Below, piece after piece: positions 35,022-54,801 of a stretch of 64,000 nucleotides of DNA. The position numbers and the translations under genes are program-made. The first letter of the stretch is position 1; every line of letters starts with the position of its first letter. The notes under the pieces are model-generated. The model was not told the DNA's origin, made no database searches, and worked only from the letters and a program-made list of their open reading frames with translations. Source of the DNA: Thermoplasmata archaeon (GTDB lineage: Archaea > Thermoplasmatota > E2 > JACPAO01 > JAHFTW01); NCBI GenBank assembly GCA_034667725.1, contig JAXDQS010000003.1, positions 256,001-320,000 on the forward strand, in the 5' to 3' direction.

Positions 35022-35025
35022 AGAT

Positions 35026-35213
35026 GCAGGCAACTGCCTGCCTGCCGGCTCGTTGGTTGCGCATCCAGGTTCCACCTGCAACCAACCCCCTAGCCTCTCC
35101 TGGAGGCCCCGGGTTCGTCAGGAGGGAAACGGTCCATGGGCCGGTTCAGCGAAACCTGAACCCGTTCGATTCCTGACGCGAAATCCACCAGGAAAACAAC
35201 GGAAACCGGGGCC
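35026..35213 (+). ncRNA. Candidate structured leader / nested inverted-repeat element upstream of the giant gene
   Basis: At least six complementary pairs: GCAGGC/GCCTGC, GTTGGTTG..CAGGT/ACCTGCAACCAAC, GCCTC/GAGGC, GGCCCCGG/CCGGGGCC, CGTCAGGA/TCCTGACG, GGTTCAG/CTGAACC. Confidence 0.45.
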
Positions 35214-35236
35214 ACGATCAGCCAAAAAGACCAAGA

Positions 35237-38200
35237 ATGTCCCAAGTGCGTCGGGCCGTCGTGTCCGCCCGTGCGCTGTCGCAAGCCCGGCCCCTCGTCG
35301 CCCTCCTGGCCCTCCTGATGGTGGTCGCCCCCGCCCTGGCGCCCGCCACCCAGGCCATCACCGTCGGCCCCGCCGACGTGACCCAGGCCGTCCAGGAGGT
35401 CCGCACCACGGCCACCAGCGCCAGCAGCAGCGCCCGCGCCGCCGTCACCGAGGCCGTCCTCGACGCCGCCGACCCCGCCCTCGACCTGGCCCTCGCGGAA
35501 CTGGACCAGGTCGAGGCCGAGGCCAACGCCGCCCGCGACCAGGCGCTGGCGCTCCTGGCCCAGGACGCGGCCTGGCGCGACGAGGTCCGCGCCATCCCCG
35601 AGGCGCTCTACGGCGTCCTGGCGATCCTCGACCAGACCCTTGCCGACGCCCGGCAGGCCGCCGACCCGCGCCCCTACCTCGCGCCGCTTTCGACCCTGGT
35701 CGCCGAGCAGGCCGCCCTGGTCGAAGAGCTGCGCGCGGCGGTCGCGGCCGCCACCGACGTCGCGCCCGACGCCCCGGTCGAGGCCGACGCCCCCGACGAG
35801 CCGACCGAGCAGGAGCACGTCCACGCCGCCGGCTACGGCGAGGAGGAGCACGCCGACGGCCAGGCCGGCCGCGTGTTCGCCGACGACCTGGCGGACGACC
35901 TCGGCCACCGCGCCTACTTCGCGATGGACCGCAACTGGGCCGTCGTCGGCGCCCCCATCAGTGTTGCCTCCCTGAGCAAGCCCGCCGCCACCCTGGCGGG
36001 CGTGCAGTGGCACTTCGACGAGCACCCCATCGCGGGCGTCGGCTTCGTCGGCGGCGACTCCGGCGCCAACGCCGCGGCCATCGTCCCGAGCTTCGAGGGC
36101 GACCGCCTCAGCGTCCGCCCGATGCGCTCCGGCCTGCACCACCTCACCCTCACCGCCACCTGGGAGGACGCCGACGGCACCCACCTCGACCGCGTCACGA
36201 CGCCCATCTACGTCGAGGACCCCGCCATCGCCACCCTCCAGGCGCTGCCGCCCCCCTCCGAGTGGGAGGCCGACGTCGTGGGTGCTCTCACCAGCCTCAA
36301 GCCGGGCGACGCGACGGGTGCAGGCGGCCTGGACGGCCTGCTGCTGCGCGACCGCCCCACGGTCCTCTTGATCTCCGACTTCCTCGGCGGCTACGACCCG
36401 CCCGCGGGTGTCGTCGCCCCGACCCAGGGCGCGCTCGACGCGCTGGCCGAGTCGGTGGCCAGCTTCGACCCGGACGCCGGCCTCGGCCAGATCGAGGCGT
36501 GGGGCGTCACCGACTACGGCGCCGACATCACCCACCACGGCGGCGCCATGGCCGCGACCCTGGTGGAGGCCGGCCTCGCCAACGTCGTGTTCGCAAGCGG
36601 CATCGACCCCGACACCGGCGTCCTCGACCGCGCCGCCATCCGCAACGCGCTGCTGTACGCCCAGCACTCCGGCAACATCGACGCCGTGCTGTGGGGCCTG
36701 CCCGCGAGCGCCTACCTGCCCGGCGTGCTGCAGAACGCCGCCCGCCCCAACCTGAACTTCCAGTCCACCCCCATGCTGCCGCTGGCGGCCGACGCGCCGC
36801 TGCCCGCCGCCGCCCGCGACTGGCGCGCCGCCCCGCTCATGCCGGCCGACACCTCGTCCGTGCTGACCGACCTCATGAAGCTCGGCTTCGCGCTCGACCC
36901 CGGCTCCGACGGCACCGGCCTCATCGGCCGCCTGCACGCCAACCTCGACCAGGTCTACAACCGCTACAAGCCGCTGGTCGAGGCCGTCCACAACGACCTC
37001 CAGTTCGACGCCTTCCTCCAGACCCAGCTGTTGGCGCTGGGCGAGCAGGGCATCCCCACCGTGGTCCCCGCCGAGGAGTGCGCCGCCCTCGCCTCGACCT
37101 ACATGACCGTGCTCGGCCTCGGCCACCTCGTCGGCACCTACACCGTCGCCGCCGGCACCAAGGACGACGGCGTCGACCCCACCAGCTGCAAGGGCCCCGA
37201 CCGCCGCGCCCACGGCCACGGCCAAGGCATCGACTTCGTCGCCGACCCCCGCCCCGCCAAGGCCACCCTGCTGGACGCCGTCCTCCCCGAGGCCCGCCTG
37301 ATTCCCTACGTCGAGGGCTCGCTGGGTGCTGCCGCCAAGGTCGCCGCCAAGCTGGCCGACCTGCGCTTCCGGCTGCGCGACGACGGCCACCCCTGGCAAG
37401 GCCAGGACCTCGCCGGCATCCTTGCCAGCCACGCCGAGTCGAGCGACCTCAGCCCCTGGGCCGAAGGCATCGGCTTCGTCGACGTCGACGGCATCCCCAG
37501 CACGCTGCCGCGCATGTTCGCCCGCCAGACGGGCGTCACCTTCCAGCCGTTCGACCTCGAGGCCGGCAAGGCCACCGGCTTCGCCCAGGTCGTCGTCACC
37601 GGCCCTGACGCCGCCACCGCCCTCGCCACCGCGGCCACCTGGGACGCCGAAGGCGGCACCCAGTGGCGCATGGCGGACGACGGGTGGGGCGGCCGCGCCG
37701 TCGAGCAAGTGACCCCGGAGACGCCGGGCCACATCGGCGTCCACCAAGGCGACAGCGTCGCCACCGCGGTCGCGCCCGACGTCACCATCGTCACGATGGA
37801 GCTGCAGGCCGAGCCCGCGACCACCTCCGGCGGCGGCTGGATGGGCACGCCGTGGGCGCCGCCGCGCGACTGGCTGCTCCCCGGCCTCTACTCGGGCCGC
37901 ACCTGGATCAGCACCTCCGCCGGCGTCCTCCAGCTTCCGATCAACCTCGGCGTCGGCACCATCGTGGACGTGTACCGCTTCCTCGCGCCCGACAAGCCCG
38001 TCGGCGACACGCTGGTCTGCCTCGCGCTCCCCGACATCGTCGGCGACGTGCTGGGCCTGCGCGAGACCAGCCACGAGCTGGGCCTCGACGAGCTCTGCCT
38101 CTACGTCGCCAGCACCGACGTGCACGGCATCGCGCGCTTCTACACGCCGCTGCCGGTCATCCCTTACAAGCTCATCTCCTGGTTCGACGGCCGCTTCAAC

Positions 38201-41200
38201 ACCCGCGGCGGCGGCATCGGCAAGGTGTACCCGCACATCGAGGTCGAGGACGTCGCGTTCCCGCTGCCCCTGAACCTGGCCGGCGCCGCGGCGTTCGCGG
38301 CCGAGGCCGTCGGCTCGGTCGCAGGCTACAACCCCCCGCCGCCCGACCAGCTCCCCGAGGAGGGCCTCCAACTGGGCTGGGCCGAGGTGGACGCCACCCC
38401 GGAGAACGAGACCCACCCCATCTTCGTGCGCGCCGACCTGCCCTACCCGCTGCTGTACGTCCCGATCAACATGACGTTCCAGCTCGCGATCGCCGTCAAC
38501 TGGCGCTACCGCGACAACATGGAGACCGACCACTTCGTCCCCGTGGCCACCACCGACGTCCTGGGCGTCCTCGACCTGCTCTCCGGCGGCCGCCTGCCCG
38601 GCTTCGTCAGCGACGTCTACTTCGAGGCCGTCCAGACCAGCGACGTGCTCACCAAGGCCGCCCAAGGCATCGAGGCGCAAGTGCTCGGCGCCGCCACCGA
38701 CCTGCCTGGCCTCAACGGCACCATCCTCGACGACATCCTCGGCCAAGGCGTCCTCAAGTCGCTGCCCGCCCTCAGCGACGTCCCCGGCACCTGCAGCTGG
38801 GGCTACGGCCATGCCACCAGCCCCGCGCTGACGCCCGAGATGGCGCCCATCCTGGCCGCCGACGACCACGCCGGCTGGAGTGCTGCCAGCTTCCTTGCCG
38901 ACAAGGTCCGCCCCGCCGTCGACCGCGAGGCCAAGGACCCCAACCAGTTCGCCTGGCCCGACACCCTGACGATGCGCAGCCGGCCCACCATCGAGAACCT
39001 GCTCACGATGGGCCTCAGCCTGCCGCTGTGCACCGCGGCCTACCCGTTCAACGTCCCGCAGCCGAACTACTACCCCACCTCCGTCGTCCACTCGTTCAAC
39101 CTCGGCATGGAGAACACCATCCTCATCGTCTGCATCTCCGCCGGCATGGACACGGTGTGCTGGATCATCCTCGCCGGCCCCGAAGGCCCCGCCATCATCG
39201 TGCCGTGGGACCTGGACGCCAAGCTGCGCGAGCTGCTGAAGGAAGCCAACGGCCTCGTCAACTTCGGCATCGAGCCGCTGCCCGAGCCCGCCGACCCGAC
39301 CCTCGCGGACCTCACCGCCGGCATCCGCGGCCTCGCCAACGTCCCGCAGCTCAACGTGGACCTGCCCGTCCTGCCCGGCATCCAGGTCGGCGGGGACGGC
39401 GGCCGCATCACGCTGGCCACCGACCTCGTCACGGCCGGCGCCCAGAGCGGCCTCATCACCTACACCGCCATCCCGCTCGCGGTCGCCGACACCGGCCTGC
39501 TGGACCCCATCGTGGGCATCCTCACGGCCAACGGCATCGACGTCGCAAGCCTCGCCCGCAGCGCCCGCATCGACATGGGACTGCCCGGCGGCGGCCTCGT
39601 CGACGGCGCCGTCAACGTCACCGCCGACCTGCCCGCCCTGCTGCGCGACTCGATCCAGGACCTCCTGGGCATCGAGTCCAAGGTCGCCATCTCGCGCGGC
39701 AGCCTCGACCTCAACGCCTGGTGGTGGGACGACTCGTTCTTCGACGCCCCCATCGCCCTCAACGCCCACCTGCCCCGCTCCACCACGACCGACTGCCTCC
39801 GGAGCTGGGACGTCGCCACCGACCCGGACCTCATGGCCGGCCCGCGCTGGCCCGCCGACGGCGACGACCCGACCTGCCTGCGCGACGCCGACGGCGACAT
39901 CGTCCTCCAGTCCGGCACCGTCGGCACCCCGAACGGCGGCTTCGACCTCGGCGAGGACTGGTGGTGGCGCACCTTCCCCAACGTGGACCGCCAATTGTTC
40001 GAGCGCGGCATGCGCTACTGGGACCCCGCGACCCTGGTGCCCGACCGCGCCGCCATGCAGGCCGACGGCTACCCGTGGGCCCAGCCCGAGATGTTCGAGG
40101 TGCTGCTGGAGCAGTTCGACGACGAGGAGATCACCGGCACGCTCCCGAACCAGAACCACTTCCACGCCGGCAACGGCCACAACGCCCACGACTTCGTCAG
40201 CACCGCCGCCCACTGCACCCGCGAGCAGGTCTACGACACCATCACCGGCGACCCGCTCCTGAACGAGAACGGCGAATACTGCTACGAGGGCCTGCTGGCG
40301 TTCGAGGAGGGCAACGGCTACCTGTTCCACGACAACACCCGCGACGGCTCCGGCATCTACGACCCGGACATGGGCCTCGGCGGCGTCGACGCGAAGCTGC
40401 TCCCGCTGCTGGACCTGCTCGGCGCCCCCACCGTGGCCAACCCCGTCGTCTGGTCGCTCGGCTTCGAGTGGGGCGGCACCCGCGCCACCACGCCGGGCCT
40501 GGTCGAGAACGTCACCGGCCACGACCCGCGCGAGCTCGACTGGTGGTCCCGCGGCGTGAGCTTCACCGCCAACCGCACCATCTACTCGGACCAATACAGC
40601 AACACGACGCTGCTCTTGGGCGACCACTTCAAGCCGTGCGAGGAGATCTCGCTGTTCAGCCGCGCCCCATTGTTCCGCATGGACGGCGTCTACGACAAAC
40701 GCCCGCGCTGGCAGGTCGCCTGCCCCATGCTGCCCGGCCCCACCGCCGTGCTGGCCCGCCAGGCCGACCCGACCCTCCCCGTGGGCTACGTGCCCGCCGG
40801 CTTCGCCGACCCCGCGGCGCCCGCCTACTGGGACTGGCAGCCGCGCCGCATGGACATGGGCCCCGACGCGCAGCTGCTGACGGCGCCCACCGTCGACGGC
40901 TGGGTCCAGGACGGCCCGCTGCTGGCGCCCTGGCTGGAGGCGCCCAGCGAGGCGCCCGAAGGCCAGGCGTGGTTCGCCAACGAGGGCGTCCGCTGCCGCC
41001 GCGAGCGCTGGATGGGCTGGGCCCCTGGCGCCGACGCGCAGGCGCGCCAGGCCGCCATCGTGCGCTTCTACGGCCAGCAGGCGCAGGACGTCCACGAGGT
41101 GCGCGTCGTCGTGCCCGAGGCCGGCCGCAGCAGCCTGTCCGGCTTCAAGGACGAGTGCGCCACCTATGACGGCTGGACCTACTGGGTCCGCGCCGACGTC

Positions 41201-44200
41201 GGCTTCAACGGCGGCGCCGTGCCGCGCTGGAACGCCTACATCCGCAACCTGCACCCGCTCTACAGCAACGGCACCTTCGCCGTCAACCTGGAGGCGTGGA
41301 ACCAGTGCCGCGCCACCGCCGACCACAAGCTCGACGGCTGGTCGTGCGCGGCCCCCGACCCGATCGCCCAGGCATGGCGCGACCTCCTGGCCCAGGCCGC
41401 CGTGCGCCACGAGGAGTACGTGCAGCCGACGACGGGTGCTGCCGTCACCACGCCCCTCACGGACGACGTGGTGGACCGCTACTGGGTCGCCAAGGCGCTC
41501 GACTTCTTCGGCATGAACGTCCAGGAGTCCGGCTACGACTACGACGGCGCCACCGACCCGACGGCGGCGCCCGCCGGCGTGCCCGTCGGCCCCGACCGCA
41601 CCGAGCGCGTCGTCACCGTGCCCCTGGCCGCCAACCCCGACGGCTGGTATGGCCTGAGCCCCGACGCCACCGAATGGGACGCCTTGTTCCACAACCTGGG
41701 GTTGCGCCAGGCCGACTGGAACCCCAACGACCCCAGCGTGCAAGTGGGCGGCATGGCGCTGCTGCAAGACTCGCTGGCCGACCTGTCGTTCCTGCTGCGC
41801 GCCTACCTCGAAGGCGACCAGGCCGCCGCGCTCGCGTGGCTGGCCTCGGAGCGTGCCCACCCGACGCTGGCAGACCCTGAGATCCGCAAGGCCGACTACT
41901 ACGAGGCCGCCCCCGCCTGGACCGGCGCCACCACCGGCCCCAACCCGTTCTGGACCGACGTGTCCGGCCACCTCGTGCCCTACGTCGAGCTCGACCGCCC
42001 CCGCCGCGACCCGACCGGCGCCCCCTGCGTCGGCCACTTCTGGCTCGGCGAGTGCCATCGCTTCGAGGTCAAGATGGACGCTGGCGACCTCACCGGCATC
42101 CGCGCCGCCGGCCCGTGGGAGAAGGACCGCGCCGCCAACGGCGCCCCGCTTCCCAAGGACAAGACCGCCTTCATCCCGCAAGGCTCCTCCTACGCCCGCT
42201 GGAACCGCCAGCACCGCGTCCCCGTCGACCTCGCCGTCGACGGCGGCCTCGCCATCGACGAGCTGCACGCGCTGCCCGCCACCGTGTCGTCCTGCCCCGG
42301 CGCGGCCACCGATTTCTGGATCCGCACCGCCGAGGCCCGGCACGCCCCCGACGGCTGGACCGCCGCGTTCCTTGGCCCCGCCGGCGCCCCCACCGCCAGC
42401 CTGCCCGGCTGGTGGACGATGACCGCGTGCGCCGTCGACACGACGCCCTGGGAGGCCTGGGCCGCCCTGGTCCACTTCGAGCCCGGCGCCCACACCGACC
42501 CCGTGTCGTACGCGCTGCCGCCCGCCCTCGGCGCGGCGTTGCTGCCCGGCGACGACGTCGGCGCCGTCAAGCTGCTGCACGCCTACTACACGTTCGGCGA
42601 GACCGACCCCAACGACCCGATCGGCAAGGCCCGCGTCACCGTCACCACGCGGGAGGCGCCCAGCGCCGAGCACCCGCTCGGCCGCGACCTCGGCTGCTGG
42701 ATCGACCGCCGCGCCCAGCACGGCACCGTGCCCCACCTGGAGTTCCGCCAGTTCGACACGACGTTCTGGAACGGCGTGGTCCGCAGCGGCTTCTACCACA
42801 ACGTCGAGGAGAACGCCCACCAGTCGTGGAACGGCGTCTCCGGCCTCGGCGGCCTGCTGTCGGGCGACGACTACGACGCCCAGTACGATGAGCCGGTGCC
42901 CGCGACCCGCTACGGCCCCTGGTGCGTCGTCCCCGGCGAGGGCGGCGACCCCGTCCTGGTGCCCGCCCGCAGCGACCGCGAATACATCCAGCAGCGCCTT
43001 GCGTGGAACATGCAGGGCGGCACCCGGCACGCCAACCGCACCATGCTGGCGCCCGCCAACCCGTTCGGCCCTGTCGGCCGCCCGATGGAGGACAGCCCGC
43101 TGCAGCTCGACGTCGGCGCCCTCCTGCGCCTGCTCGATGCCCTGCTGAACGACGTCACAGCCCTTGCCGACCTCGGCATCCCGGTGCCCGACCTGAGCGG
43201 CGCCGTCGCAGGCGTCGTCGCGGACACCCGCCTCCTCAACCACACGGGCGACATCGCCCAGGCCGCCAAGGATCTGCGCACCACGCTGGAGGCGCTGCCC
43301 ATCGACATCGGCATCGAGGCGTCGGCGCCGGACCTGGTCCGCTTCGACCTCGCAAGCCCCGTCGTGCCCCTGGCCCGCGTCAGCATCGCCAGCGACGTCA
43401 CCGTCGCCGAGGCGGCGCTGCGCCAGACGCACAGCTTCCCGCCCGGCACGCAAGGCATCTTCCTGGCGTCGCTCGACGGCGAGACCTGGCATCACCTGCC
43501 CGGCCGGCTGCGCGTCGGCGTCACCAGCGGCGACGCCGAAGCCGGCGAGCGCATGGAGTTCCTCGACCTGAGCGCCTTCCGCGGCCAGAGCGTCCTTTTG
43601 GGCACCCAGTTGCTGGGCGCCGGCTGGGGCGACGCCTCCTGGCGCATCGACGGCCTGCAGGCCTACGGCACGGGGGTCGCCACCGGCGTCGGCCCTGCCA
43701 TGGACGCCTTCCCGGGCAGCCTGGGCGGCGCCGTCGCGTTCGACCCGCCGCACACGCCCGGCCAGACCTGGGCGTCGCTCGGCGCGCTGGCGCCCGGCTC
43801 CGTCGTCCACCTCAAGGCGCCCCTCACCATCCCGACCGGCCAGACCCTGACGCTCAACGGCGTCAAGCTGGTGGCGGGCCGCTGCGGCGCCGCCGCCTGC
43901 GCCATCACCGTCGATGGCACGCTGCGGATGACCGGCGGCGAGATCGCGCCGGCCACGGTCGCCGCGCCCGACGCCAGCCAGGTCGCCCAAGGCGCCCTCG
44001 TGCAGGTGCACGGCCTGCTGGAGGCCAGCGGCACCACGCTGCGCGGCCTGCTCGGCGGCATCCACGTCCTCGGCGGCAAGCTCGTTGCCCGCGACTGCTG
44101 GGTCGTCGACACCGGCGTCCTCGGCATCGCGAGCCTGTTCGGCGAGCTCGACGTCCAAGACTGCGTCTTCATGGGCCAGACCGTCGGCCTCTACACCCTC

Positions 44201-47200
44201 GGCAGCCGCGTCCGAGTCGAGGACAACCTGTTCGCGCGCATGGACCGCGTCGCCGGCGCCTTCGACGACTCGTGGGGCACCCTCCGCGGCAACGCTGTGC
44301 TGCACGCCGAGAAGGCCGGCTTCCTCGTCAAGGGCATCCTCGGCGCCCAGAACCTCGCCATCCTCGACAACGTCGTGCGCGAGACCTCCACCGGCATGGG
44401 CAGCCTGTTCGCCCTCGAGCAGCGCATCCTCGCCCTCGACCCGCTGCACGGCGGCGTCCCGCTGTCGGCCCGCACCCGCTACCAAGGCAACGACATCGAG
44501 TTCGCCACCCTGGAGGGCCTGTTCGCCAGCGACCTGGCGGCACCCTACTTCGTCGGCAACGACGTGACCCACGACGGCTACGGCGCCACCAACGGCATGC
44601 TGTCGGACGGCGCGTTCCACCACAACAGCCTGTACACCAACTTCAACGGCTGGATGGACCCCGTGCGCGCCGACCCGCCGCAAGGCGACGCCTGGTTCGA
44701 GGCCGGCAACGCGCCGCGGCCGTTCGCGCCGCCGGTGCGCCGCGGCCCCGTCCCCGAGGACGGCAACCTCCTGGGCGGCGCCCGCGGCCACTCGGTGGCC
44801 CCCGGCGCGATGGACTACAACTACTGGGGCCCGGAGCGCGTCGGCGGCTCGCCCGAAGGCCGCGTCCCCAAGGGCCCCGGCGGCTTCCGCCTGGCGGCCC
44901 CGCCCGACAAGCCGATGATGGCGGCCCTGACCGCGCCGGCCTACGGCGGCGGCGCCCTGCCGGACCTGCTCGACGCCACCGGCGGCGTCCTCGACCCCGC
45001 CACCGACATCCTCGGCGTCGGCGGCGACAGCCAGCCCTTCGCCGGCCTGCCCGACCTGGTGGACGTCGACCAAGTGAAGCTTGGCCTGTTCCGCGACCGG
45101 CTCGTGCCGCTCGAGGTGGACGTGCCGCCCGGCGTCACCGCGGTCACCGTCCAGGCCACGTTCCGCGAGACCGGCTTCATGCAGGCGCTCCAGATCGCCG
45201 ACCTGGACGAGCTGGCCGACACCTCGTTGGAGGAGTTCGTGGGCAGCCTGCGCGACCTCGTCGGCACCATCGTGGACGACCCCGCCGTCACCCGCACCGA
45301 GACCTGGACCCTCACCGTCCCGGGCGGCCAGTCGCACGCCGGCCGGACCTTCGCGTTTGACGGCATCCGCGAGGCCTACGTCGACGTCGAGGTGGCGAGC
45401 TTCACCGTGGACCCCGCCCTGTGGAGCCCCGCCCGGATGGCCGCCATGGGCGCCGTCGCCGTAGGCACGAACGCCTACCAGGGCGACGTGCTTCTCACCA
45501 AGGACGTCCGCGTCCACAACTCGATCACCTGGCCCCTGCTGCTGGACCTGACGACCCTCGTGCACGACCTCACCTTCACGGTCGTCAACGAGACCCTGGC
45601 CACCTTCGACCAGACGGTGCTCGGCGTCGGGCTCACGGCCTCCATCGACGGCGCCAGCAACGCCGGCCTGCCGGTCCTCCCCATGCCGGACGGCACCCTG
45701 CCGCTGCACGGCGTCCCCGACCTCCTGACATTGGCCAAAGACCAGGACCCCGTGCGCGGCATCGAGGCCCGCTTCGAGCTCGGCGCCGACGCCACCGCCC
45801 TCGCGGGCGTCCTCACCGGCATCGGCATGGACAAGAGTGTTGCCCTGCCCGACGTGCCCGAGGGCCTGACCCTGGCCGTCGAGGCCCGCGCCATGGACGC
45901 CAGCAACCTGGTGTCCCCGTGGGTCGGCGTCCGCCTGCTCACCGACCTGCACCCGCCCGCCATCGCGCTCGACAGCGAATGCCTGTCGGACACGCAAGGC
46001 GGCGTGCCCTACGAGGTCCACGAATGGCGCGGCACGGGCTGGACCGCGGCGCACCGCGCCAGCGGCGTCAGCAACGTCGCCATCCGTGTCGCCCCGGCCA
46101 TCGAGGTCGAAGGCGGCCCGCAGCCGTTCCGCGTCGACCTGCCGTTCCCCGGCGACGACGTCACGGGCGCCATCCCGATCCCCTCCTACGGCATGGTCGA
46201 CGGCATGGTGTACCAGGTCCGCGGTGTTGCCCAGGACCGCGCCGGCAACGCCGGCAGCGACGAGCTGACCCGCCTCGTGGTGGACCTGTCCGGCCCGCGC
46301 ATCCAGCTCGGCACCCTGCTCGACGCCATCGTCAGCCGCGCCCAGTCGGGCAAGCCGTTCGTCGGCCTCGGCGACCTGGTGGGCGGCAAGCTCGCCATCC
46401 GCGTCGACGTCGACGACGGCCCCACCGCGGTCGCGGAGGCGCTGCGGAACTCGTGCGGCCTCTTGGAGGCCAGCCTGGAGATGCGCACCGCCGCCAACGG
46501 CCCCTGGACCACCCTGGCCTCCTGGTCGGGCGACTCGGGCGCCAACCACGCCGACCTCGACCACGACCTCGACGTCGCCGCCGCCCTGAGCGGCCGCTAC
46601 CTCGAGCTTCGGGTGCGCGCCCGCGACGGCGCCAACCACCAGGCCGAGGCGACCACCGGCAACCTGCTGGCCGACCTGACCATCCCCGTGCCCATCGTCC
46701 TGCCCGACCTGCCCGCCTGCGTCGGCGACACCCTCGGCACCGTCGCCGTCCAATGGGGCGGCCGCGAGCTCATCCCCACGGGCGGCCTGGCCGGCAGCGG
46801 CCTCGCCTCCGGCGAGCTGGTCGCCCTCAAGGGCGCCGCCACGACGACGCTCGACCAGTTCACGGCGCCCGTCGGCACCATGGCCGTGCAACAGCCGTAC
46901 AGCCTCGACCCCGTCGCCCGCCTCACCGACGGCAGCTACGTCCTGGCCGTCCGCCTGCACGACCACGCCGGCAACAGCCAGCTCTGGAGCAGCGTCAGCG
47001 GGCTCACCCCCGCCCAGGCCGCGGAGGCCGTCGCCCTCGGCGCCCTCGCCGTGGACCCGCACGACCCCGTGCTCACGGAGCAGACGTTCCGCCACTGGGA
47101 AGGCACGGTCGCCAGTCTCCTCACGAGCGACCCGCTCAACGGCGACCTCGTCAACGTCGACGCCGCCATTGACGACGCCCTGGCCGGGATCTACAGCTGC

Positions 47201-50113
47201 GGCCTCAAGGTCGTCCAACTGTTCCTCGACAGCGCCGCCGGCACCGAGCTGCTGTCGCAGGAGAACCCGACGGGCACCGCGCAGCCGTTCTACGGCCGCG
47301 GCGTCAACCTCGCCACCAAGCCCGCGCTCGACGGCCGCACCGCGACGCTGCGCGTGCGGGCCGAGGACAACGGCGGCAACGTCCGCCAAGCCACCTCGCC
47401 CACGTTCCTGGTGGACTTGACGGCGCCCGTCATCGGCACGCTGCCCACGCTGCCCGCCTGCGTCGGCACGGCCGGCGCCGCCATCCCGTGGACCACCGTG
47501 GACGGCGCCCCCAGCGGCGTCGGCTACCCGTACACGCCCTCCGGCCTCGCCACCGACCGCGCCCGGGTCTACCGCAACGGCATCGCCACCTCGACCTACC
47601 TTGCCCCAGGCGCCGCCTGGGCGCCGGGCACGGGCGACCACGGCGTCGGCTTCACGTTCCGCGTCGAGGCCGCCGACCGCGCCGGCAACGCCGCCGCAGC
47701 CAAGACCTTCGCCACCACGGTCACGGCCGACCTCACCGGCCCGCCGCTGACGCTCGGCCTCGCTGGTCTCGGGATGCAGCTCGTCCCGCTGCCCGGGGGC
47801 GCGGACGACGGCGCCATCCACCTCTACGCCACGCCTGGCGCGGACGTCGGCTGCGCCGGCGCCGCCGGCCTCAAGGTCATGGCGCAGCGCGTCGTGGACG
47901 GCGCCGACTGGGGCAGCCCCGTCGACATCACGGCCACCGCCGCCGACTGGAGCGACCCGCTCTCGACCAACGCGGCGCTGCACCACCACAACGTGAAGTA
48001 CAAGGTGTACGCCCAGGACAGCCTCGGCAACAAGGGCGCCACCAAGGAGACGCAGCAGCTCCACGTCGACTACCGCTACCCGAACATCGACCTCGGCAGC
48101 ACCGCCGCGTTCTTCGGCCGCCTCGTCGCCACCGGCACCGACCTCGGCAACCCCTACACGGGCGTCCTCGACCTCGGCCCCGGCTTCGGCACCGAGGACG
48201 GCGCCGGCCTCGCCACCGTCGTCGGCCCCAACGCGCGTCTGCTGTCGGGCTACACCACGCTCCCGATCCGCGCCACCGTCACCATGCCCGGCGCCGTCGC
48301 CATCAAGGCCGGCCCCACCGCCACCATGGACGGCCTCAGCGCGGGCCTGTCCGGCACCGGGCCGTGGACCCACACCTACAACGTGCTGGGCGCCGCCGTG
48401 AACGCCGAGCACGCCTTCGTGGCGAGCGTCACGGGCAGCAACGGCCTCACCGGGCAAGCCAGGCACCGCGTCTTCGTGCCCCAGGACAGCAGCACCATGC
48501 TGGAGGAGTCGGCCTGGACCAAGACCGGCACCGGCACCGGCGACCGCCTGTTCGGCTCGCCCACGGGCACCACCGGCTACGCCCTGCGCATTGACGCCTC
48601 GACGACGCAGGCCGTCGACCTGCGGCGCACCGTCGCCAACCCGTCGCCGCGGCTGGCCGTCGCGGCCGACGTCCGCCTGGAGCGCAAGGACGCCACCGGC
48701 GACCTGCGCGTGCTCGACGTCCTCGACACGGCCACCACCAGCCGCGCGGCCCTCGTCGTCAAGGACGCCACCCGCGAACTGTTCCTGCGCACCAGCGCCG
48801 GCGACACCGCCACCGGCAAGTCGTTGCCCCTCGGCAGCTACACCCACGTCGCCCTCGTGCTGCGCGGCACCATCGCCGAGCTGCACGTCGGCGGCGCCTT
48901 CGTCGGCGAATACGCCGTCCCGGCCGCCACGGCGGGCGTGGCGGCGCTGGCCACCGGCGGCACGGGCGGGAAGGTGCATCTGGACAACGTGCAGGTGCAC
49001 GGGCTCGAGCTGTCGTTGAAGGAGGTCGATCCGCTGCCGTTCGGGGACGCAGGCGCCTGGACGCCCGTCGGGCTCGGCGTGACGCTCACCAGCGTCGGCT
49101 TCGGCACCGACACCGCGACCAAGATCCAGGCCACGACCACCGCCGAGGCCACGATGCCCTTCGTGGAGTCCGGCACGCGCGGCCAGGCGACCGTCCACTT
49201 CCTGCAGTCGGCCACCATCTCCACGAGCGAGGTGGCGCGCTTCGTCGACGCGGACGGCGACGCGGTCCTGACCGCCAAGCTCGGCGGCAACCGGCTGCTG
49301 GTCTCCGACGGCCTCAGCGGCTTCCACATCTTCAGCACGCCGCTCAACCTCGACTGGCACCGCCTCGACGTCTTCCGCGAGGGCAGCGACGTCTTCGCGC
49401 AGCTCGACCAAGGGACCGCCGTCAAGCTCGCGGCCAGCAGCCCCGACCCGATCGCCGACGTGGCCGCCGGCCGCGGCGGCACGGTCTACCTCGGCGACGC
49501 GCGCAGCCTCGACAGCGTGCCGTTCAAGCTCGACAACAGCCGCGGCCTCTCGGAGGCCGGCGGCTGGACGGTCGGCGGCACGGCCGCCGCCGTCACCACG
49601 GCGGTGGGCGGCCACTGGACGCCGGGTGCGTTCTCGGTCGACCCGGCCGCCAACGAGGCCGCCTACCTGGCGGTCGACGTCGCGCCAGCCGGCAGCGCCT
49701 ACACCGCGAAGGCATCGTTCCGGCCGCCGTTCGCGGGCTCGCCGGCCGCCGACCAGTGGGTGCTCGCCTTCCTGGATGCAAGCCTGGCGCCGAAGTTCGG
49801 CGTCTACTCGCTGCCGGTCGGGGCGCCGGGCGCCTACGCCGGCTACGACCTGGTCTACCGCGACCCGGCCGGCGGCGAGACGACCGTCGCCGAGGTCCGG
49901 GGCTCCAACGTCTGGCAGACCGTGGCCGTGAAGGTGGACGCCAAGGCCGGGACCGTCGAGGTGCTGGCCAACGGCGTCTCGTTCGGCGCGGCGGCCTTCG
50001 CGCCCTTCCCCGCCATCGCCAAGGTCGCGGCCGGCGACGTCTCCACCGCCGCGGCCGCCAGCCCCGGCCCAGGCGAATACGACGACCTCGTGCTCCTGCC
50101 GGGAATCAACTGA
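35237..50113 (+). CDS. Giant (4958 aa) secreted multidomain protein: degenerate subtilase-like domain, parallel beta-helix, Ig-like repeats, C-terminal beta-sandwich domains
   Basis: Uninterrupted ORF with host-like GC3-rich codons; signal peptide ending PATQA; S8-like motifs near 36350-37500; seven DxxxN Ig-like motifs. Confidence 0.88.
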   Translation: MSQVRRAVVSARALSQARPLVALLALLMVVAPALAPATQAITVGPADVTQAVQEVRTTATSASSSARAAVTEAVLDAADPALDLALAELDQVEAEANAARDQALALLAQDAAWRDEVRAIPEALYGVLAILDQTLADARQAADPRPYLAPLSTLVAEQAALVEELRAAVAAATDVAPDAPVEADAPDEPTEQEHVHAAGYGEEEHADGQAGRVFADDLADDLGHRAYFAMDRNWAVVGAPISVASLSKPAATLAGVQWHFDEHPIAGVGFVGGDSGANAAAIVPSFEGDRLSVRPMRSGLHHLTLTATWEDADGTHLDRVTTPIYVEDPAIATLQALPPPSEWEADVVGALTSLKPGDATGAGGLDGLLLRDRPTVLLISDFLGGYDPPAGVVAPTQGALDALAESVASFDPDAGLGQIEAWGVTDYGADITHHGGAMAATLVEAGLANVVFASGIDPDTGVLDRAAIRNALLYAQHSGNIDAVLWGLPASAYLPGVLQNAARPNLNFQSTPMLPLAADAPLPAAARDWRAAPLMPADTSSVLTDLMKLGFALDPGSDGTGLIGRLHANLDQVYNRYKPLVEAVHNDLQFDAFLQTQLLALGEQGIPTVVPAEECAALASTYMTVLGLGHLVGTYTVAAGTKDDGVDPTSCKGPDRRAHGHGQGIDFVADPRPAKATLLDAVLPEARLIPYVEGSLGAAAKVAAKLADLRFRLRDDGHPWQGQDLAGILASHAESSDLSPWAEGIGFVDVDGIPSTLPRMFARQTGVTFQPFDLEAGKATGFAQVVVTGPDAATALATAATWDAEGGTQWRMADDGWGGRAVEQVTPETPGHIGVHQGDSVATAVAPDVTIVTMELQAEPATTSGGGWMGTPWAPPRDWLLPGLYSGRTWISTSAGVLQLPINLGVGTIVDVYRFLAPDKPVGDTLVCLALPDIVGDVLGLRETSHELGLDELCLYVASTDVHGIARFYTPLPVIPYKLISWFDGRFNTRGGGIGKVYPHIEVEDVAFPLPLNLAGAAAFAAEAVGSVAGYNPPPPDQLPEEGLQLGWAEVDATPENETHPIFVRADLPYPLLYVPINMTFQLAIAVNWRYRDNMETDHFVPVATTDVLGVLDLLSGGRLPGFVSDVYFEAVQTSDVLTKAAQGIEAQVLGAATDLPGLNGTILDDILGQGVLKSLPALSDVPGTCSWGYGHATSPALTPEMAPILAADDHAGWSAASFLADKVRPAVDREAKDPNQFAWPDTLTMRSRPTIENLLTMGLSLPLCTAAYPFNVPQPNYYPTSVVHSFNLGMENTILIVCISAGMDTVCWIILAGPEGPAIIVPWDLDAKLRELLKEANGLVNFGIEPLPEPADPTLADLTAGIRGLANVPQLNVDLPVLPGIQVGGDGGRITLATDLVTAGAQSGLITYTAIPLAVADTGLLDPIVGILTANGIDVASLARSARIDMGLPGGGLVDGAVNVTADLPALLRDSIQDLLGIESKVAISRGSLDLNAWWWDDSFFDAPIALNAHLPRSTTTDCLRSWDVATDPDLMAGPRWPADGDDPTCLRDADGDIVLQSGTVGTPNGGFDLGEDWWWRTFPNVDRQLFERGMRYWDPATLVPDRAAMQADGYPWAQPEMFEVLLEQFDDEEITGTLPNQNHFHAGNGHNAHDFVSTAAHCTREQVYDTITGDPLLNENGEYCYEGLLAFEEGNGYLFHDNTRDGSGIYDPDMGLGGVDAKLLPLLDLLGAPTVANPVVWSLGFEWGGTRATTPGLVENVTGHDPRELDWWSRGVSFTANRTIYSDQYSNTTLLLGDHFKPCEEISLFSRAPLFRMDGVYDKRPRWQVACPMLPGPTAVLARQADPTLPVGYVPAGFADPAAPAYWDWQPRRMDMGPDAQLLTAPTVDGWVQDGPLLAPWLEAPSEAPEGQAWFANEGVRCRRERWMGWAPGADAQARQAAIVRFYGQQAQDVHEVRVVVPEAGRSSLSGFKDECATYDGWTYWVRADVGFNGGAVPRWNAYIRNLHPLYSNGTFAVNLEAWNQCRATADHKLDGWSCAAPDPIAQAWRDLLAQAAVRHEEYVQPTTGAAVTTPLTDDVVDRYWVAKALDFFGMNVQESGYDYDGATDPTAAPAGVPVGPDRTERVVTVPLAANPDGWYGLSPDATEWDALFHNLGLRQADWNPNDPSVQVGGMALLQDSLADLSFLLRAYLEGDQAAALAWLASERAHPTLADPEIRKADYYEAAPAWTGATTGPNPFWTDVSGHLVPYVELDRPRRDPTGAPCVGHFWLGECHRFEVKMDAGDLTGIRAAGPWEKDRAANGAPLPKDKTAFIPQGSSYARWNRQHRVPVDLAVDGGLAIDELHALPATVSSCPGAATDFWIRTAEARHAPDGWTAAFLGPAGAPTASLPGWWTMTACAVDTTPWEAWAALVHFEPGAHTDPVSYALPPALGAALLPGDDVGAVKLLHAYYTFGETDPNDPIGKARVTVTTREAPSAEHPLGRDLGCWIDRRAQHGTVPHLEFRQFDTTFWNGVVRSGFYHNVEENAHQSWNGVSGLGGLLSGDDYDAQYDEPVPATRYGPWCVVPGEGGDPVLVPARSDREYIQQRLAWNMQGGTRHANRTMLAPANPFGPVGRPMEDSPLQLDVGALLRLLDALLNDVTALADLGIPVPDLSGAVAGVVADTRLLNHTGDIAQAAKDLRTTLEALPIDIGIEASAPDLVRFDLASPVVPLARVSIASDVTVAEAALRQTHSFPPGTQGIFLASLDGETWHHLPGRLRVGVTSGDAEAGERMEFLDLSAFRGQSVLLGTQLLGAGWGDASWRIDGLQAYGTGVATGVGPAMDAFPGSLGGAVAFDPPHTPGQTWASLGALAPGSVVHLKAPLTIPTGQTLTLNGVKLVAGRCGAAACAITVDGTLRMTGGEIAPATVAAPDASQVAQGALVQVHGLLEASGTTLRGLLGGIHVLGGKLVARDCWVVDTGVLGIASLFGELDVQDCVFMGQTVGLYTLGSRVRVEDNLFARMDRVAGAFDDSWGTLRGNAVLHAEKAGFLVKGILGAQNLAILDNVVRETSTGMGSLFALEQRILALDPLHGGVPLSARTRYQGNDIEFATLEGLFASDLAAPYFVGNDVTHDGYGATNGMLSDGAFHHNSLYTNFNGWMDPVRADPPQGDAWFEAGNAPRPFAPPVRRGPVPEDGNLLGGARGHSVAPGAMDYNYWGPERVGGSPEGRVPKGPGGFRLAAPPDKPMMAALTAPAYGGGALPDLLDATGGVLDPATDILGVGGDSQPFAGLPDLVDVDQVKLGLFRDRLVPLEVDVPPGVTAVTVQATFRETGFMQALQIADLDELADTSLEEFVGSLRDLVGTIVDDPAVTRTETWTLTVPGGQSHAGRTFAFDGIREAYVDVEVASFTVDPALWSPARMAAMGAVAVGTNAYQGDVLLTKDVRVHNSITWPLLLDLTTLVHDLTFTVVNETLATFDQTVLGVGLTASIDGASNAGLPVLPMPDGTLPLHGVPDLLTLAKDQDPVRGIEARFELGADATALAGVLTGIGMDKSVALPDVPEGLTLAVEARAMDASNLVSPWVGVRLLTDLHPPAIALDSECLSDTQGGVPYEVHEWRGTGWTAAHRASGVSNVAIRVAPAIEVEGGPQPFRVDLPFPGDDVTGAIPIPSYGMVDGMVYQVRGVAQDRAGNAGSDELTRLVVDLSGPRIQLGTLLDAIVSRAQSGKPFVGLGDLVGGKLAIRVDVDDGPTAVAEALRNSCGLLEASLEMRTAANGPWTTLASWSGDSGANHADLDHDLDVAAALSGRYLELRVRARDGANHQAEATTGNLLADLTIPVPIVLPDLPACVGDTLGTVAVQWGGRELIPTGGLAGSGLASGELVALKGAATTTLDQFTAPVGTMAVQQPYSLDPVARLTDGSYVLAVRLHDHAGNSQLWSSVSGLTPAQAAEAVALGALAVDPHDPVLTEQTFRHWEGTVASLLTSDPLNGDLVNVDAAIDDALAGIYSCGLKVVQLFLDSAAGTELLSQENPTGTAQPFYGRGVNLATKPALDGRTATLRVRAEDNGGNVRQATSPTFLVDLTAPVIGTLPTLPACVGTAGAAIPWTTVDGAPSGVGYPYTPSGLATDRARVYRNGIATSTYLAPGAAWAPGTGDHGVGFTFRVEAADRAGNAAAAKTFATTVTADLTGPPLTLGLAGLGMQLVPLPGGADDGAIHLYATPGADVGCAGAAGLKVMAQRVVDGADWGSPVDITATAADWSDPLSTNAALHHHNVKYKVYAQDSLGNKGATKETQQLHVDYRYPNIDLGSTAAFFGRLVATGTDLGNPYTGVLDLGPGFGTEDGAGLATVVGPNARLLSGYTTLPIRATVTMPGAVAIKAGPTATMDGLSAGLSGTGPWTHTYNVLGAAVNAEHAFVASVTGSNGLTGQARHRVFVPQDSSTMLEESAWTKTGTGTGDRLFGSPTGTTGYALRIDASTTQAVDLRRTVANPSPRLAVAADVRLERKDATGDLRVLDVLDTATTSRAALVVKDATRELFLRTSAGDTATGKSLPLGSYTHVALVLRGTIAELHVGGAFVGEYAVPAATAGVAALATGGTGGKVHLDNVQVHGLELSLKEVDPLPFGDAGAWTPVGLGVTLTSVGFGTDTATKIQATTTAEATMPFVESGTRGQATVHFLQSATISTSEVARFVDADGDAVLTAKLGGNRLLVSDGLSGFHIFSTPLNLDWHRLDVFREGSDVFAQLDQGTAVKLAASSPDPIADVAAGRGGTVYLGDARSLDSVPFKLDNSRGLSEAGGWTVGGTAAAVTTAVGGHWTPGAFSVDPAANEAAYLAVDVAPAGSAYTAKASFRPPFAGSPAADQWVLAFLDASLAPKFGVYSLPVGAPGAYAGYDLVYRDPAGGETTVAEVRGSNVWQTVAVKVDAKAGTVEVLANGVSFGAAAFAPFPAIAKVAAGDVSTAAAASPGPGEYDDLVLLPGIN

Positions 50114-50124
50114 GGGAACCACCC

Positions 50125-51297
50125 ATGCGAAACAACCACCGAACCACCGCCGCCGCGCTCGTGACCGCCCTCGCCTTCAGCCTGGGCGCGCTCGCGCACC
50201 TCCCGTTGCCCGCCGCCGGCGCCTACCTGGCGCCGTCGCAGTCCGCGACCATCTCGTCCGACCCCGTCAACGGCACGGACTTCACGACCGGGTACGACCC
50301 CGACGTGCGCAACCAGGACGGCACGCTCATCGGCGACGGCGTCGAGCCTGTGCCCGGCGCCACCGGCAAGCTGGTCAACGGCCAGTTCGGCTGGCTGAAA
50401 GGCACTGGCAAGCACATCCTGAGCCCCCAGGAAAGCCTGGACGGCCAGCTGAGCGAGCTGCGGCTGGTGCCCGGCCTCGGCTGGTTCTGGAGCATCGACC
50501 GCCCCAGCCAGATCTCCGACGACGACCTGCACACCAGCGAGGTCGCCACCGCCACCCTGTCCCCCGTCGCCGGCGAGTACCTGCGCGTGTCGCTCTCCTG
50601 GAGCTCGCCCACCTGCGGCGCCTCCTACACGCAGCGCGACATCTGGAACGCGGGCGCGCCCATGAGCGGCCTCAAGCTCGGCGTCTTCTACCAGAAGGAC
50701 CCCGTCAACTTCATGGACAACCCGAACAATGTCGAGGAGGTCGCCAACATGCGGCATGACCGCCTGGTCCTGAACGTCGACGCCACCCCCGCCTCGGCCC
50801 TTTGCCAGGCCACCGTCGAGTACGCCTTCAACCTCCGCTTCGTCTTCGAGACCTCGTACATCAGCCCGTGGGACGGCACCGGCGCGTTGTCGAACCTCGG
50901 CGCCCAGCGGGAGGAGATGCGCGCCTGGGTCGTCCAGCCCGGCGCCACCCAGGCCCCGGCCACGGCCAGCCAGCCGAGCGACGTGCTGTACGCGCCCGTC
51001 ATCCCGCTGGTGTGGGTCTGCTCCGAGCTGCCCCGCGAAGCCCCCGACGCTTGCGCCCAGACCGCGATGGCCAACGCCCGCGCCGGCGGCCCCAAGGCGG
51101 TCGTGTTCCCAGACCCCACGAACGGCTGGCACACGCTCGTCATGAAGGTCTACCCGACCGGCGTCGTCCAAGGCTCCCGGACCTACGTGCCCGACCCCTA
51201 CACGTCGTACACTGTCACGCGGACCCGGCTGGCGACCCTGGACAGCCTGAACTACTACAACGAGCAGCCCTGGCCGTTCGCGCCGATGTACACGTGA
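50125..51297 (+). CDS. Secreted hypothetical protein (390 aa), probably co-transcribed with the giant gene
   Basis: ATG 11 nt after the giant gene stop; signal peptide MRNNHRTTAAALVTALAFSLGALA. Confidence 0.8.
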   Translation: MRNNHRTTAAALVTALAFSLGALAHLPLPAAGAYLAPSQSATISSDPVNGTDFTTGYDPDVRNQDGTLIGDGVEPVPGATGKLVNGQFGWLKGTGKHILSPQESLDGQLSELRLVPGLGWFWSIDRPSQISDDDLHTSEVATATLSPVAGEYLRVSLSWSSPTCGASYTQRDIWNAGAPMSGLKLGVFYQKDPVNFMDNPNNVEEVANMRHDRLVLNVDATPASALCQATVEYAFNLRFVFETSYISPWDGTGALSNLGAQREEMRAWVVQPGATQAPATASQPSDVLYAPVIPLVWVCSELPREAPDACAQTAMANARAGGPKAVVFPDPTNGWHTLVMKVYPTGVVQGSRTYVPDPYTSYTVTRTRLATLDSLNYYNEQPWPFAPMYT

Positions 51298-51308: not shown

Positions 51309-51330
51309 TCCTTTTCCTCCTCTTTCTTCT
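51309..51330 (+). terminator. Pyrimidine-rich tract, archaeal-type terminator candidate
   Basis: tccttttcctcctctttcttct between the convergent stops of the secreted protein and hutH. Confidence 0.5.
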
Positions 51331-52864
51331 AGTCCAGCCTGACGCCCGCCTTCGCCACCGCCGCCCGCAGCGTCCCCTCGCGCAGCAGCCGCGCCACCGC
51401 GGCGACGTCGTCGGCGAGGATGCGGTCCTTGTCGAGCTTCGGCACGCGGGCCCGGATGGCGCGGTGCGCCGCCGCGGAGCCGGCGCCGGGCGCAAGCGGC
51501 GCCTTGAAGTCGAGCGCCTGGGCGGCGCAGAGCGCCTCGATGGCGACCACGTTGCGGGCGTTCTCCAGCACTTGGCCGAGCTTGAGCGCCGAGATGCTGC
51601 CCATGCTGACGTGGTCCTCCTGGTTGGCGCTGGTCGGGATCGAGTCCACGCTCGCGGGGTGGGCGTGCACCTTGTTCTCGGACACCAGCGCCGCCGCGAC
51701 GTACTGCGCGATCATGAAGCCGGAGTTGAGGCCGCCCGCGTCCACCAGGAACGGCTTGAGCCCCTCGCTCAGGTCCGGGTTGACGAGGCGCTCGACCCGG
51801 CGCTCCGCGATGCTGGCCACCTCGGCCAGGGCGATGGCCAAGAAGTCGAGCTGGAACGCCAGCACCTCGCCGTGGAAGTTGCCTTGGCTGACGATGCTGC
51901 CGTCGGGGAACACGAGCGGGTTGTCGGTGGCGGCGTTGACCTCGATCGCCAACACTTGGGCCGCTGTCTCCACCACGTCGCGGCAGGCGCCCAGCACCTG
52001 CGGGATGCAGCGCAGCGAGTAGGCGTCCTGCACGCGCTCGCAGCCGGCATGGCTCTGGACGATCGCCGAGCCGGCGGTGGCGGCGCGCAGGTTGGCGGCG
52101 ACGACGGCCTGGCCCGGATGCGGGCGGGCGGCGTGGACGCGCGGGTCCATCGGCGCCGTCGAGCCCATCAGGGCCTCCAGGCTCATGGCGGCCGCCACCT
52201 GGGCGTCGTGCAGCAGGCCGCGGGCGTCGTGGACGGCGAGCACGCCGATGGCCGCCATCATCTGGGTGCCGTTGATGAGCGCCAAGCCCTCCTTGGCCTC
52301 CAGCACGAGCGGCGCCAGGCCGGCCTCGCGCAGCGCCACGTCGGCGGGCACGATGCCGCCGTCGGCGCGCGCGACGTGGCCGAGGCCGATGATGGGGAGT
52401 GCCATGTGCGACAGCGGCGCCAGGTCGCCGGAGGCGCCAACGCTGCCGCGCGACGGCACCATGGGCACCAGGTCCTTCTCCAGCAAGAGCAGGATGCGCT
52501 CGACCAGCAGGCGCCGGACGCCTGATAGGCCCTTCAGCAGCGTGTTGGCGCGAACCAGCATCATCGCGCGCACCACCTCGCGCGGGAGCGCCGGACCGAC
52601 GCCGACGCTGTGGCTCATCAGCAGGTTGCGCTGCAATTCGCGGACCTGGGCGGGGTCGATGCGGACGTGCGCGAACTCGCCGAAGCCCGTCGTGATGCCG
52701 TAGGCCACCTCGCCTTTCCGGACGAGGGCATCGACGACCTTGCGGCTGGCCTCGACGGCGGCCCAGGCAGCGGGAGCGACCTCGACGCGGGTGGCGGGGT
52801 CGCGGGCGACGCGGGCCACGTCCTCAAGGGTCAGGCTGGAGCCGTCCAGGCGCACCGGCTGCAC
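51329..52864 (-). CDS. hutH: Histidine ammonia-lyase
   Basis: YGITTGFG, GSVGASGDLAPL (MIO-forming ASG), QDAYSLRC, GNFHG and NQEDHVSMG motifs; GTG start inferred. Confidence 0.95.
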   Translation of the reverse strand: MQPVRLDGSSLTLEDVARVARDPATRVEVAPAAWAAVEASRKVVDALVRKGEVAYGITTGFGEFAHVRIDPAQVRELQRNLLMSHSVGVGPALPREVVRAMMLVRANTLLKGLSGVRRLLVERILLLLEKDLVPMVPSRGSVGASGDLAPLSHMALPIIGLGHVARADGGIVPADVALREAGLAPLVLEAKEGLALINGTQMMAAIGVLAVHDARGLLHDAQVAAAMSLEALMGSTAPMDPRVHAARPHPGQAVVAANLRAATAGSAIVQSHAGCERVQDAYSLRCIPQVLGACRDVVETAAQVLAIEVNAATDNPLVFPDGSIVSQGNFHGEVLAFQLDFLAIALAEVASIAERRVERLVNPDLSEGLKPFLVDAGGLNSGFMIAQYVAAALVSENKVHAHPASVDSIPTSANQEDHVSMGSISALKLGQVLENARNVVAIEALCAAQALDFKAPLAPGAGSAAAHRAIRARVPKLDKDRILADDVAAVARLLREGTLRAAVAKAGVRLD

Positions 52865-52910
52865 GGTGGGGCGGACCCTGGGGGGGCGGTTCAATGCTTC
52901 GCGCGGCCGG

Positions 52911-54703: not shown

Positions 54704-54801
54704 GGGAGGCAGGGGGAAGTGCGGCTCCCCGTTCATAAAGCGACGCAGGCGGCTTGCTTCGGCACGAAACACCCATAGCGACCCCGCAAGTCCCCCGCCC
54801 A

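Follow-up and report, generated by a model that had tools for sequence, protein, structure and literature searches.

Giant modular secreted proteins with unannotated stretches are already known. In cell-envelope proteinases of the C5a peptidase type, such as PrtP and ScpA, a secreted S8 (subtilase) domain is followed by beta-sandwich domains and a stalk, and polysaccharide lyases and hydrolases often contain right-handed beta-helices or ConA-like modules. The uncultured Thermoplasmatota are heterotrophs that occur in abundance; to our knowledge, little is known of how they contact particles, polymers and other cells. The subject of this report is a gene for a very large secreted protein in a window of 64,000 nucleotides from a Thermoplasmata archaeon (assembly GCA_034667725.1, contig JAXDQS010000003.1, positions 256,001 to 320,000), the window being the whole stretch of DNA that was analysed. 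The gene lies on the + strand and encodes 4958 amino acids (aa). Its product is called P0001, or the giant protein, and its genome G000; other P and G labels denote homologues and related genomes. The source genome assembly totals 2.32 Mb over 26 contigs, with a completeness of 90%.

The Omnitrophota 'Archaeovorins' are bacterial proteins of >10,000-30,000 aa with numerous transmembrane regions and a divergent SecA DEAD helicase domain (bioRxiv 10.1101/2023.11.21.568195). Metagenomic giants contain long N-terminal regions without identifiable domains, some have an N-terminal S8-like domain, and their attachment and carbohydrate-related modules were found by structure prediction only (bioRxiv 10.1101/2023.11.21.568195). 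The protein described here is like the Archaeovorins in its very large metagenomic open reading frame (ORF), its undomained N-terminal stretch and its predicted N-terminal S8-like domain; unlike them, it is archaeal, has a single N-terminal hydrophobic segment and gives no SecA or DEAD match in Pfam. It differs from PrtP and ScpA in having no detected PA domain and no LPXTG or other anchor, in its 4000 further residues (orphan core, beta-helix and LamG) and in its doubtful catalytic competence. Proteins of adhesin-like type with Big_13 or other immunoglobulin-like (Ig-like) repeats, beta-helices (NosD/CASH) and LamG/ConA domains contain the same module types as its C-terminal 2100 aa, whereas the repeats of the giant are too diverged for BLASTP, it has no anchor, and conservation within its family lies in the non-repetitive N-terminal 3100 aa, not in the repeats. 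Judged by its module types, it is of a known kind, a giant modular secreted or surface protein, and as a whole it falls in no curated family.

A 4958-aa ORF had been predicted from the sequence alone. It is present, on the coding strand, and one genuine gene, in one piece, encodes the giant protein. Among 5.8 billion protein clusters there is one near-length homologue, P0002 (5837 aa), which is collinear over the whole length at 37/31/26% identity, and six-frame searching of related genomes added orthologues from G004 (3995 aa), G017 (4717 aa) and G001, placing the gene in 4/38 genomes of the order, all in one family. The JGI contig L019 carries the N terminus of the P0002 lineage. A hidden Markov model (HMM) of aa 215-1345 searched against 1.84 billion representative proteins returned seven, all at E<=1e-99 and all members of the family, among them the new member P0007 (4280 aa) and two fragments; it returned no distant relatives and no sequence similarity outside the family. 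On these sequence matches the family of the giant protein is small, with about seven lineages. The original prediction had raised the possibility of an assembly chimera, which proves very improbable. Three proteins encoded in other assemblies, P0002, P0004 and P0007, match the giant in collinear order from about aa 64/215 as far as the C-terminal LamG region, and because such collinearity extends to at least five independent assemblies we consider a chimera ruled out. The orthologue in G001 is split over two contigs and is interrupted by a single in-frame TAG (L013:3765-3767, contig C201; 1254 + 2332 codons), with a high GC content at third codon positions (GC3) on both sides; the TAG could be a sequencing error, a pseudogene mutation or a site of read-through.

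We favour, at somewhat less than an even chance, the reading that the giant is an extracellular adhesin-like scaffold, with an Ig stalk and LamG and beta-helix modules for binding glycan-rich targets and with the conserved N-terminal half as its functional head. Exported by the Sec route, the protein would act outside the cell as a long binding scaffold. Held out on the Ig stalk, the lectin-like LamG tips, perhaps together with the beta-helix, would reach targets rich in glycans, for example particles, polymers or other cells, while the N-terminal half, made up of the S8-like domain and the orphan core, would serve as a head that binds or processes a protein or polymer ligand; the head is possibly hydrolytic. 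Retention at the cell, if any, would be non-covalent and might involve the product of the adjoining gene, here termed the partner. The order of domains given in the original prediction has stood up to testing; the features in question are as follows, in window coordinates.

35237..50113, + strand: giant gene, 4958 aa, from the list of ORFs of the window
35237..35353, + strand: signal-peptide-like segment (aa 1-39), read from the sequence, with a basic n-region, a hydrophobic core PLVALLALLMVVAPALAPA and Ala-x-Ala sites
35354..35878, + strand: variable linker (aa 40-214), 26.6% Ala in P0001, from composition and orthologue comparison
35906..36217, + strand: Ig-like beta-sandwich (aa 224-327), all-beta in the AlphaFold2 (AF2) model and conserved in all orthologues
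36344..37546, + strand: predicted divergent subtilisin-fold (S8-like) domain (aa about 370-770), with a ~100-aa insertion at aa about 495-600 and triad-equivalent residues D381, H432/H433 and S695
37568..38191, + strand: two beta-rich modules (aa about 778-985), strands in a low-confidence AF2 model, no family match
38192..43306, + strand: orphan core (aa about 986-2690, ~1700 aa), non-repetitive and Trp-rich, with paired Cys and conserved columns
43334..43681, + strand: conserved Asp-box module, SLDGETW at aa 2745 (consensus S-x-D-x-G-x-T-W), from alignment A1, no Pfam match
43814..44566, + strand: predicted right-handed parallel beta-helix (aa about 2860-3110), from a Pfam match in an orthologue
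44567..45598, + strand: conserved region (aa 3111-3454), kept among orthologues, no family match
45599..48082, + strand: seven units of Ig-like type (aa about 3455-4282), all with a D-x-(A/G)-G-N-type motif at the end
48083..48556, + strand: module (aa 4283-4440), no Pfam match, unrelated to the neighbouring modules by hhalign
48557..50110, + strand: LamG/ConA-like region (aa 4441-4958), comprising a Laminin_G_3 domain, a weaker copy and a final module without assignment, ending YDDLVLLPGIN
50125..51297, + strand: partner gene, 390 aa, predicted secreted, signal peptide MRNNHRTTAAALVTALAFSLGALA, pI 4.9, starting 11 nt past the stop of the giant gene
35090..50122, - strand: antisense shadow ORF of 5010 codons, not a gene, from GC3 and composition

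The case for export begins at the N terminus, where the predicted signal peptide is borne out as a signal-like segment and as the sole strongly hydrophobic terminal segment. Windows of 19 residues with a mean Kyte-Doolittle value >1.8 occur only at aa 13-41, in the signal region, and internally at aa 1294-1314. Signal-like N termini are also found in P0003, P0004 and the G001 fragment, and all orthologues with an N terminus have one. The lack of a C-terminal anchor was likewise correctly foreseen: there is no hydrophobic 19-mer beyond aa 1314, the protein ends in ...LLPGIN, and sequence and hydropathy of the C terminus, GEYDDLVLLPGIN, reveal no archaeosortase/PGF-CTERM motif with its hydrophobic helix. 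The protein has a mass of 519 kDa, a pI of 4.56 and 34 Cys, mostly in close conserved pairs; a signal-like N terminus together with disulfide-type Cys pairs are, at the level of sequence, features of an exported protein. N-glycosylation sequons are not enriched (11 observed vs 14 expected). Salt-in halophily as the cause of the acidic pI is ruled out by the pI of 7-9 of the cytoplasmic neighbour proteins.

The scaffold proposal draws chiefly on the C-terminal modules. Pfam, applied both to the entire giant protein and to ten overlapping pieces of 700 aa, gave three matches only, to Big_13, Laminin_G_3 and, weakly, NosD; NCBIfam yielded no useful match. The Ig-like units had been recognized by seven motifs, which lie at aa 3552, 3666, 3796, 3908, 4043, 4146 and 4260 (nt 45890-48014) with a spacing of 103-135 aa. 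Big_13 (PF19077) matches at aa 3885-3915 in the 700-aa pieces with 32.3 and 33.4 bits against a cut-off of 27, covering 31/102 profile positions, and there is a weak Big_3_2 match in the same Ig-like region. Comparison of the units by hhalign, with orthologue alignments, relates units 2-7 to one another at probabilities of 68-97% (U3 with U5, 97%; U2 with U3, 93%; U4 with U6, 90%; U5 with U6, 84%; U3 with U7, 68%), and U1 is linked weakly to the others, at 33%. These matches and relationships uphold the Ig-like assignment. An iterative HMM search that started from a single Ig unit did not extend beyond it. The low internal repetition that had been remarked upon is also real, BLASTP self-comparison giving nothing at E<0.01, and no paralogues of the C-terminal 1709 aa were found in the organism's own genome.

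The LamG prediction corresponds to one Pfam Laminin_G_3 domain and a second, weaker unit. Laminin_G_3 (PF13385) matches aa 4457-4597 with 29.5 bits (cut-off 27.6) over profile positions 5-150/151 when scanned as a piece, and with 24.2 bits in the whole-protein scan; the module at 4441-4605 is related to that at 4606-4790 with an hhalign probability of 56%. The predicted beta-helix passes the Pfam cut-off at the homologous place in P0004, where aa 2339-2483 match Beta_helix (PF13229) with 30.5 bits (cut-off 25.9) and NosD (PF05048) with 24.0 (cut-off 23.6) and align to aa about 2940-3085 of P0001. P0001 itself gives NosD at E 0.21 only, and the G001 orthologue a weak Beta_helix match. The InhA-like_MAM domain (PF20773) precomputed for P0002 has no match in P0001. 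Elsewhere in the same genome, InhA-like MAM-type matches lie in open frames of 2623 and 1128 codons (G000:C10:258205-258357 and G000:C3:418469-418618), which means that the source organism encodes other big secreted proteins, unrelated to the giant.

The N-terminal half, which would form the head, opens with the linker at aa 40-214. It is poorly conserved and varies in length, being Pro-rich in P0003 and G001 and nearly absent in P0004. AF2 prediction of aa 215-1345 from five sequences gave a predicted local distance difference test (pLDDT) score of 37; only the Ig-like sandwich at aa 224-327 reached about 60-82, and no fold was readable for aa 860-1345 in this model. The two beta-rich modules at aa about 778-985 are the most conserved stretch of the family, with 48-61% identity among orthologues.

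Between the Ig-like sandwich and these modules lies the stretch that the original prediction had called subtilase-like, and here predicted fold and language-model features agree with it while sequence methods see nothing. PF00082 has no match at E<=1 in the whole protein or its 700-aa pieces; a six-frame PF00082 search of the genome found 5 places, none in the giant gene; and hhalign against four S8 domains of the same genome, with shallow profiles, gave a probability of 0.1%. ESM Atlas places aa 340-770 beside Peptidase_S8 clusters in 29/30 matches, with a score of 0.94 and only 128/256 features shared, and this placement was treated as a lead only. AF2 of aa 335-775 from a seven-sequence alignment reached a pLDDT of 56.9 and a predicted template modelling score (pTM) of 0.66. 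The top Foldseek matches of this model are all subtilisins (best E 2e-3, TM-score up to 0.53 on target), and the pseudoproteases CspC and PCSK9 are among its fold matches. With moderate confidence, the model thus points to a subtilisin alpha/beta fold for aa about 370-770. A subtilisin-fold domain can evidently be hidden from HMM annotation and show itself only through structure prediction and language-model features.

Whether such a domain would be an enzyme is a separate matter. Asp381, at the end of strand 1, and Ser695, at the start of a long helix within the motif N-S-[LMF]-G-A, are invariant in the family alignment. The column of the His, at the start of the preceding helix, holds H in P0001, P0002, G001 and P0007, R in P0003 and F in P0004, the register of the triad having been taken from motif order and model secondary structure rather than from residue-level superposition. 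The oxyanion-hole Asn (AAGN) is absent, the strand reading VVP(A/S)(E/D)(E/D/S)C in all members. Because two orthologues have Arg or Phe in the His column and the oxyanion Asn is replaced by Glu or Asp, classical proteolysis is unlikely to be the conserved function of the domain. From these columns, its conserved role probably does not need classical catalysis, as in CspC and PCSK9. Compared with subtilases (MEROPS S8/PF00082, including CspC and PCSK9), the domain has no HMM-level similarity, H, R or F in the His column, Glu or Asp for the oxyanion Asn and a ~100-aa insertion, and it is embedded in a protein of 4958 aa.

The orphan core makes up the remainder of the presumptive head. The original prediction had set aside a large core that it could not assign, and no method has assigned it since. 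There is no Pfam match (whole protein and 700-aa pieces) and no NCBIfam match; searches of the PDB with the whole-protein sequence and with profiles A2, A4 and A5 gave nothing credible; and ESM Atlas on aa 1480-1850 gave no usable match, with a low recognition value of 1437. A word-indexed search with the core profile A4 found nothing, a weak negative, as it also missed the 1934-aa family fragment P0009; shorter or stand-alone relatives of the core were not found either, in what is a weak test. A profile of aa 1346-2620 run against 401 Thermoplasmatota genomes found only G000, G004 and G017 and three short marginal matches, and profile-profile comparison of 27 overlapping windows for internal repeats gave nothing above 52% probability. 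Even so, the core retains 20-60% identity within the family; its Cys pairs are invariant, as are many of its Trp, Asp, Glu and Pro residues. Its description as Trp/Cys/Asp/Pro-rich holds only mildly, the composition of aa 755-2620 being 3.4% W, 1.2% C, 8.1% D and 8.5% P. Its conservation marks the core as a genuine orphan region rather than filler of low complexity. One third of this secreted protein of half a megadalton keeps 35-60% identity among lineages and yet matches nothing known, which makes it a compact target for new extracellular folds. The bolder proposal, that the core holds one or more new folds or catalytic domains and forms, with the S8-like domain and the secreted partner, a new archaeal extracellular machine rather than a passive adhesin, is possible but, in our estimation, rather doubtful.

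Several observations weigh against an adhesin-like scaffold. At its C-terminal end, the LamG and Big_13 scores are just above the Pfam cut-offs, the beta-helix passes its cut-off in an orthologue only, no anchor was found, so that surface attachment is a guess, and the G004 orthologue has neither LamG tail nor partner. That orthologue (L015/L017, JAZJZE010000011.1), from a genome placed in the same archaeal genus as the window, ends in a Gly/Ser/Ala-rich tract, and because it lacks both, the tail and the partner are dispensable in at least one lineage. In the head, the AF2 model behind the S8 assignment is of moderate confidence (pLDDT 57); D381, H432/H433 and S695 are all present in P0001, leaving proteolysis possible there; and roughly one third of the sequence lacks an assignable fold, so that part may hold the real activity.

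The likeliest rival, which we nevertheless think unlikely, is that the protein is chiefly a giant extracellular depolymerase: proteins or polysaccharides would be degraded by an active S8 protease in the head, by a beta-helix or orphan catalytic domain that cleaves glycans, or by both, and the Ig and LamG modules would bind the substrate. The three putative triad residues stand at the strand-end and helix-N-terminal positions expected of a subtilisin triad in P0001 and 4/6 lineages, and the substitutions in the His column of P0003 and P0004 and at the oxyanion Asn of all members speak against catalysis. The Pfam beta-helix and ConA-like matches are to modules usual in polysaccharide lyases and hydrolases, and the core has many invariant Asp, Glu and Trp, yet neither Pfam nor NCBIfam detects a glycoside hydrolase, lyase or peptidase family anywhere in the protein. 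The source genome encodes other secreted S8 proteases, which would fit a protein-degrading lifestyle; 519 kDa, on the other hand, is an unusual format for an enzyme.

Considerably less probable is a role in cell-cell interaction with another organism, whether attachment to a host, prey or partner or antagonism, after the manner of the giants of episymbiotic or predatory microbes. Patchy accessory distribution within the genus, a partner that evolves fast (24% identity between lineages) and C-terminal module sets that vary among orthologues would suit such a role, and giants with N-terminal S8 domains implicated in predation provide a precedent (bioRxiv 10.1101/2023.11.21.568195). Against this, scans of the giant, the partner and ten neighbouring genes, which are housekeeping hut (histidine utilisation) and other genes, detected no domain of a toxin, lysin or secretion system; the multiple transmembrane segments of the Omnitrophota giants are missing; and nothing about a 2.3-Mb genome, 90% complete, points to symbiosis.

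A structural envelope or S-layer component is very improbable, indeed close to refuted, because of its distribution. In its favour, the protein is secreted, acidic and large, and its Ig-like and beta-helix modules resemble those of many surface-layer and sheath proteins of archaea; against it, only 4/38 genomes of the order carry the gene, it is missing with intact flanks in the congeners G006 and G007, and there is no PGF-CTERM or transmembrane anchor. The original prediction had allowed that a known S-layer or adhesin family might explain everything: no S-layer family matches, and the protein as a whole belongs to no curated family.

The idea of an artefact, an assembly chimera or a non-coding frame opened by high GC, is so improbable as to be negligible: long open frames do arise by chance at 73% GC, and one of 5010 codons is present on the antisense strand, but GC3 is 0.97 against 0.72 at first positions throughout the giant ORF, full-length collinear orthologues at 26-45% identity exist in at least five other assemblies, and domain-level matches fall in the sense frame only.

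A search for homologues and conserved partners in metagenome-assembled genomes, as the original prediction had proposed, yielded the orthologues in G001, G004 and G017 and a partner kept in three lineages, co-oriented and directly 3' of the giant gene in each. The partner homologue follows the G001 orthologue after a 14-nt gap (24% identity, E 9e-10) and the G017 orthologue with a 4-nt overlap (24% identity, E 3e-6); it is absent after the G004 orthologue, where DUF373 is directly next. The partner has no Pfam family match.

The local gene order is hutG (-), hutI (+), giant (+), partner (+), hutH (-), DUF373 (-), hutU (+) and an M50 peptidase, and neighbours in the window include an archaeal Hel308-type helicase as well as DUF373. 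In G006 and G007, whose genomes are 92-94% complete, the order is hutG-hutI-hutH-hutU|DUF373-orf-M50-gltD with only 138-310 bp between hutU and DUF373, and the giant gene is absent from the hut-DUF373 regions examined in the congeners G002, G005, G006 and G007. In G004 and L019 it occupies precisely the space between hutU and DUF373, in G000 the neighbourhood is the same but rearranged, and in G017 it adjoins aEF-2, not the hut locus. The giant gene is thus accessory and part of the flexible genome, and within its genus its place is beside hutU/DUF373. A functional link to histidine utilisation was rejected as the likeliest reading, given that congeners without the gene share the hut neighbourhood and that the G017 gene lies beside aEF-2; the surrounding hut genes reflect common descent of the locus rather than function. 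Genes such as this one act, at strain level, as accessory genes accompanied by a secreted partner of their own. The original prediction had mentioned neither this rare accessory status nor the conserved partner nor the antisense ORF of equal length.

The hut cluster at 51329-56448 is rearranged relative to congeners (L038/L039), with hutH and DUF373 adjacent and hutU inverted, and this rearrangement is probably connected with the presence of the giant gene. The intergenic stretch between hutI and the giant gene (35022-35236, 215 nt) is less GC-rich and has no obvious TATA box. Over the whole window, Rfam at the gathering threshold finds only a tRNA-Arg at 26969. Window GC is about 73%, and it falls to about 0.65-0.69 in 2-kb windows spanning 30-34 kb.

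The strand opposite the giant gene was considered as a real gene and ruled out by codon-position GC and amino-acid composition. The two ORFs overlap codon for codon, so that position 1 of one faces position 3 of the other: GC at codon positions 1/2/3 is 0.72/0.51/0.97 in the giant ORF, uniform in ten 1.5-kb windows, and 0.97/0.51/0.72 in the antisense ORF. The antisense translation contains S, T, I, K, Y and W at <=0.3% each, which is impossible for a real protein. For these reasons of codon-position GC and composition, the antisense ORF is the shadow of the 97% GC3 on the + strand. For genome annotation, the locus is thus a clear-cut case of a 15-kb shadow ORF on the antisense strand of very GC-rich DNA, one that, at 5010 codons, could be mis-called by gene finders.

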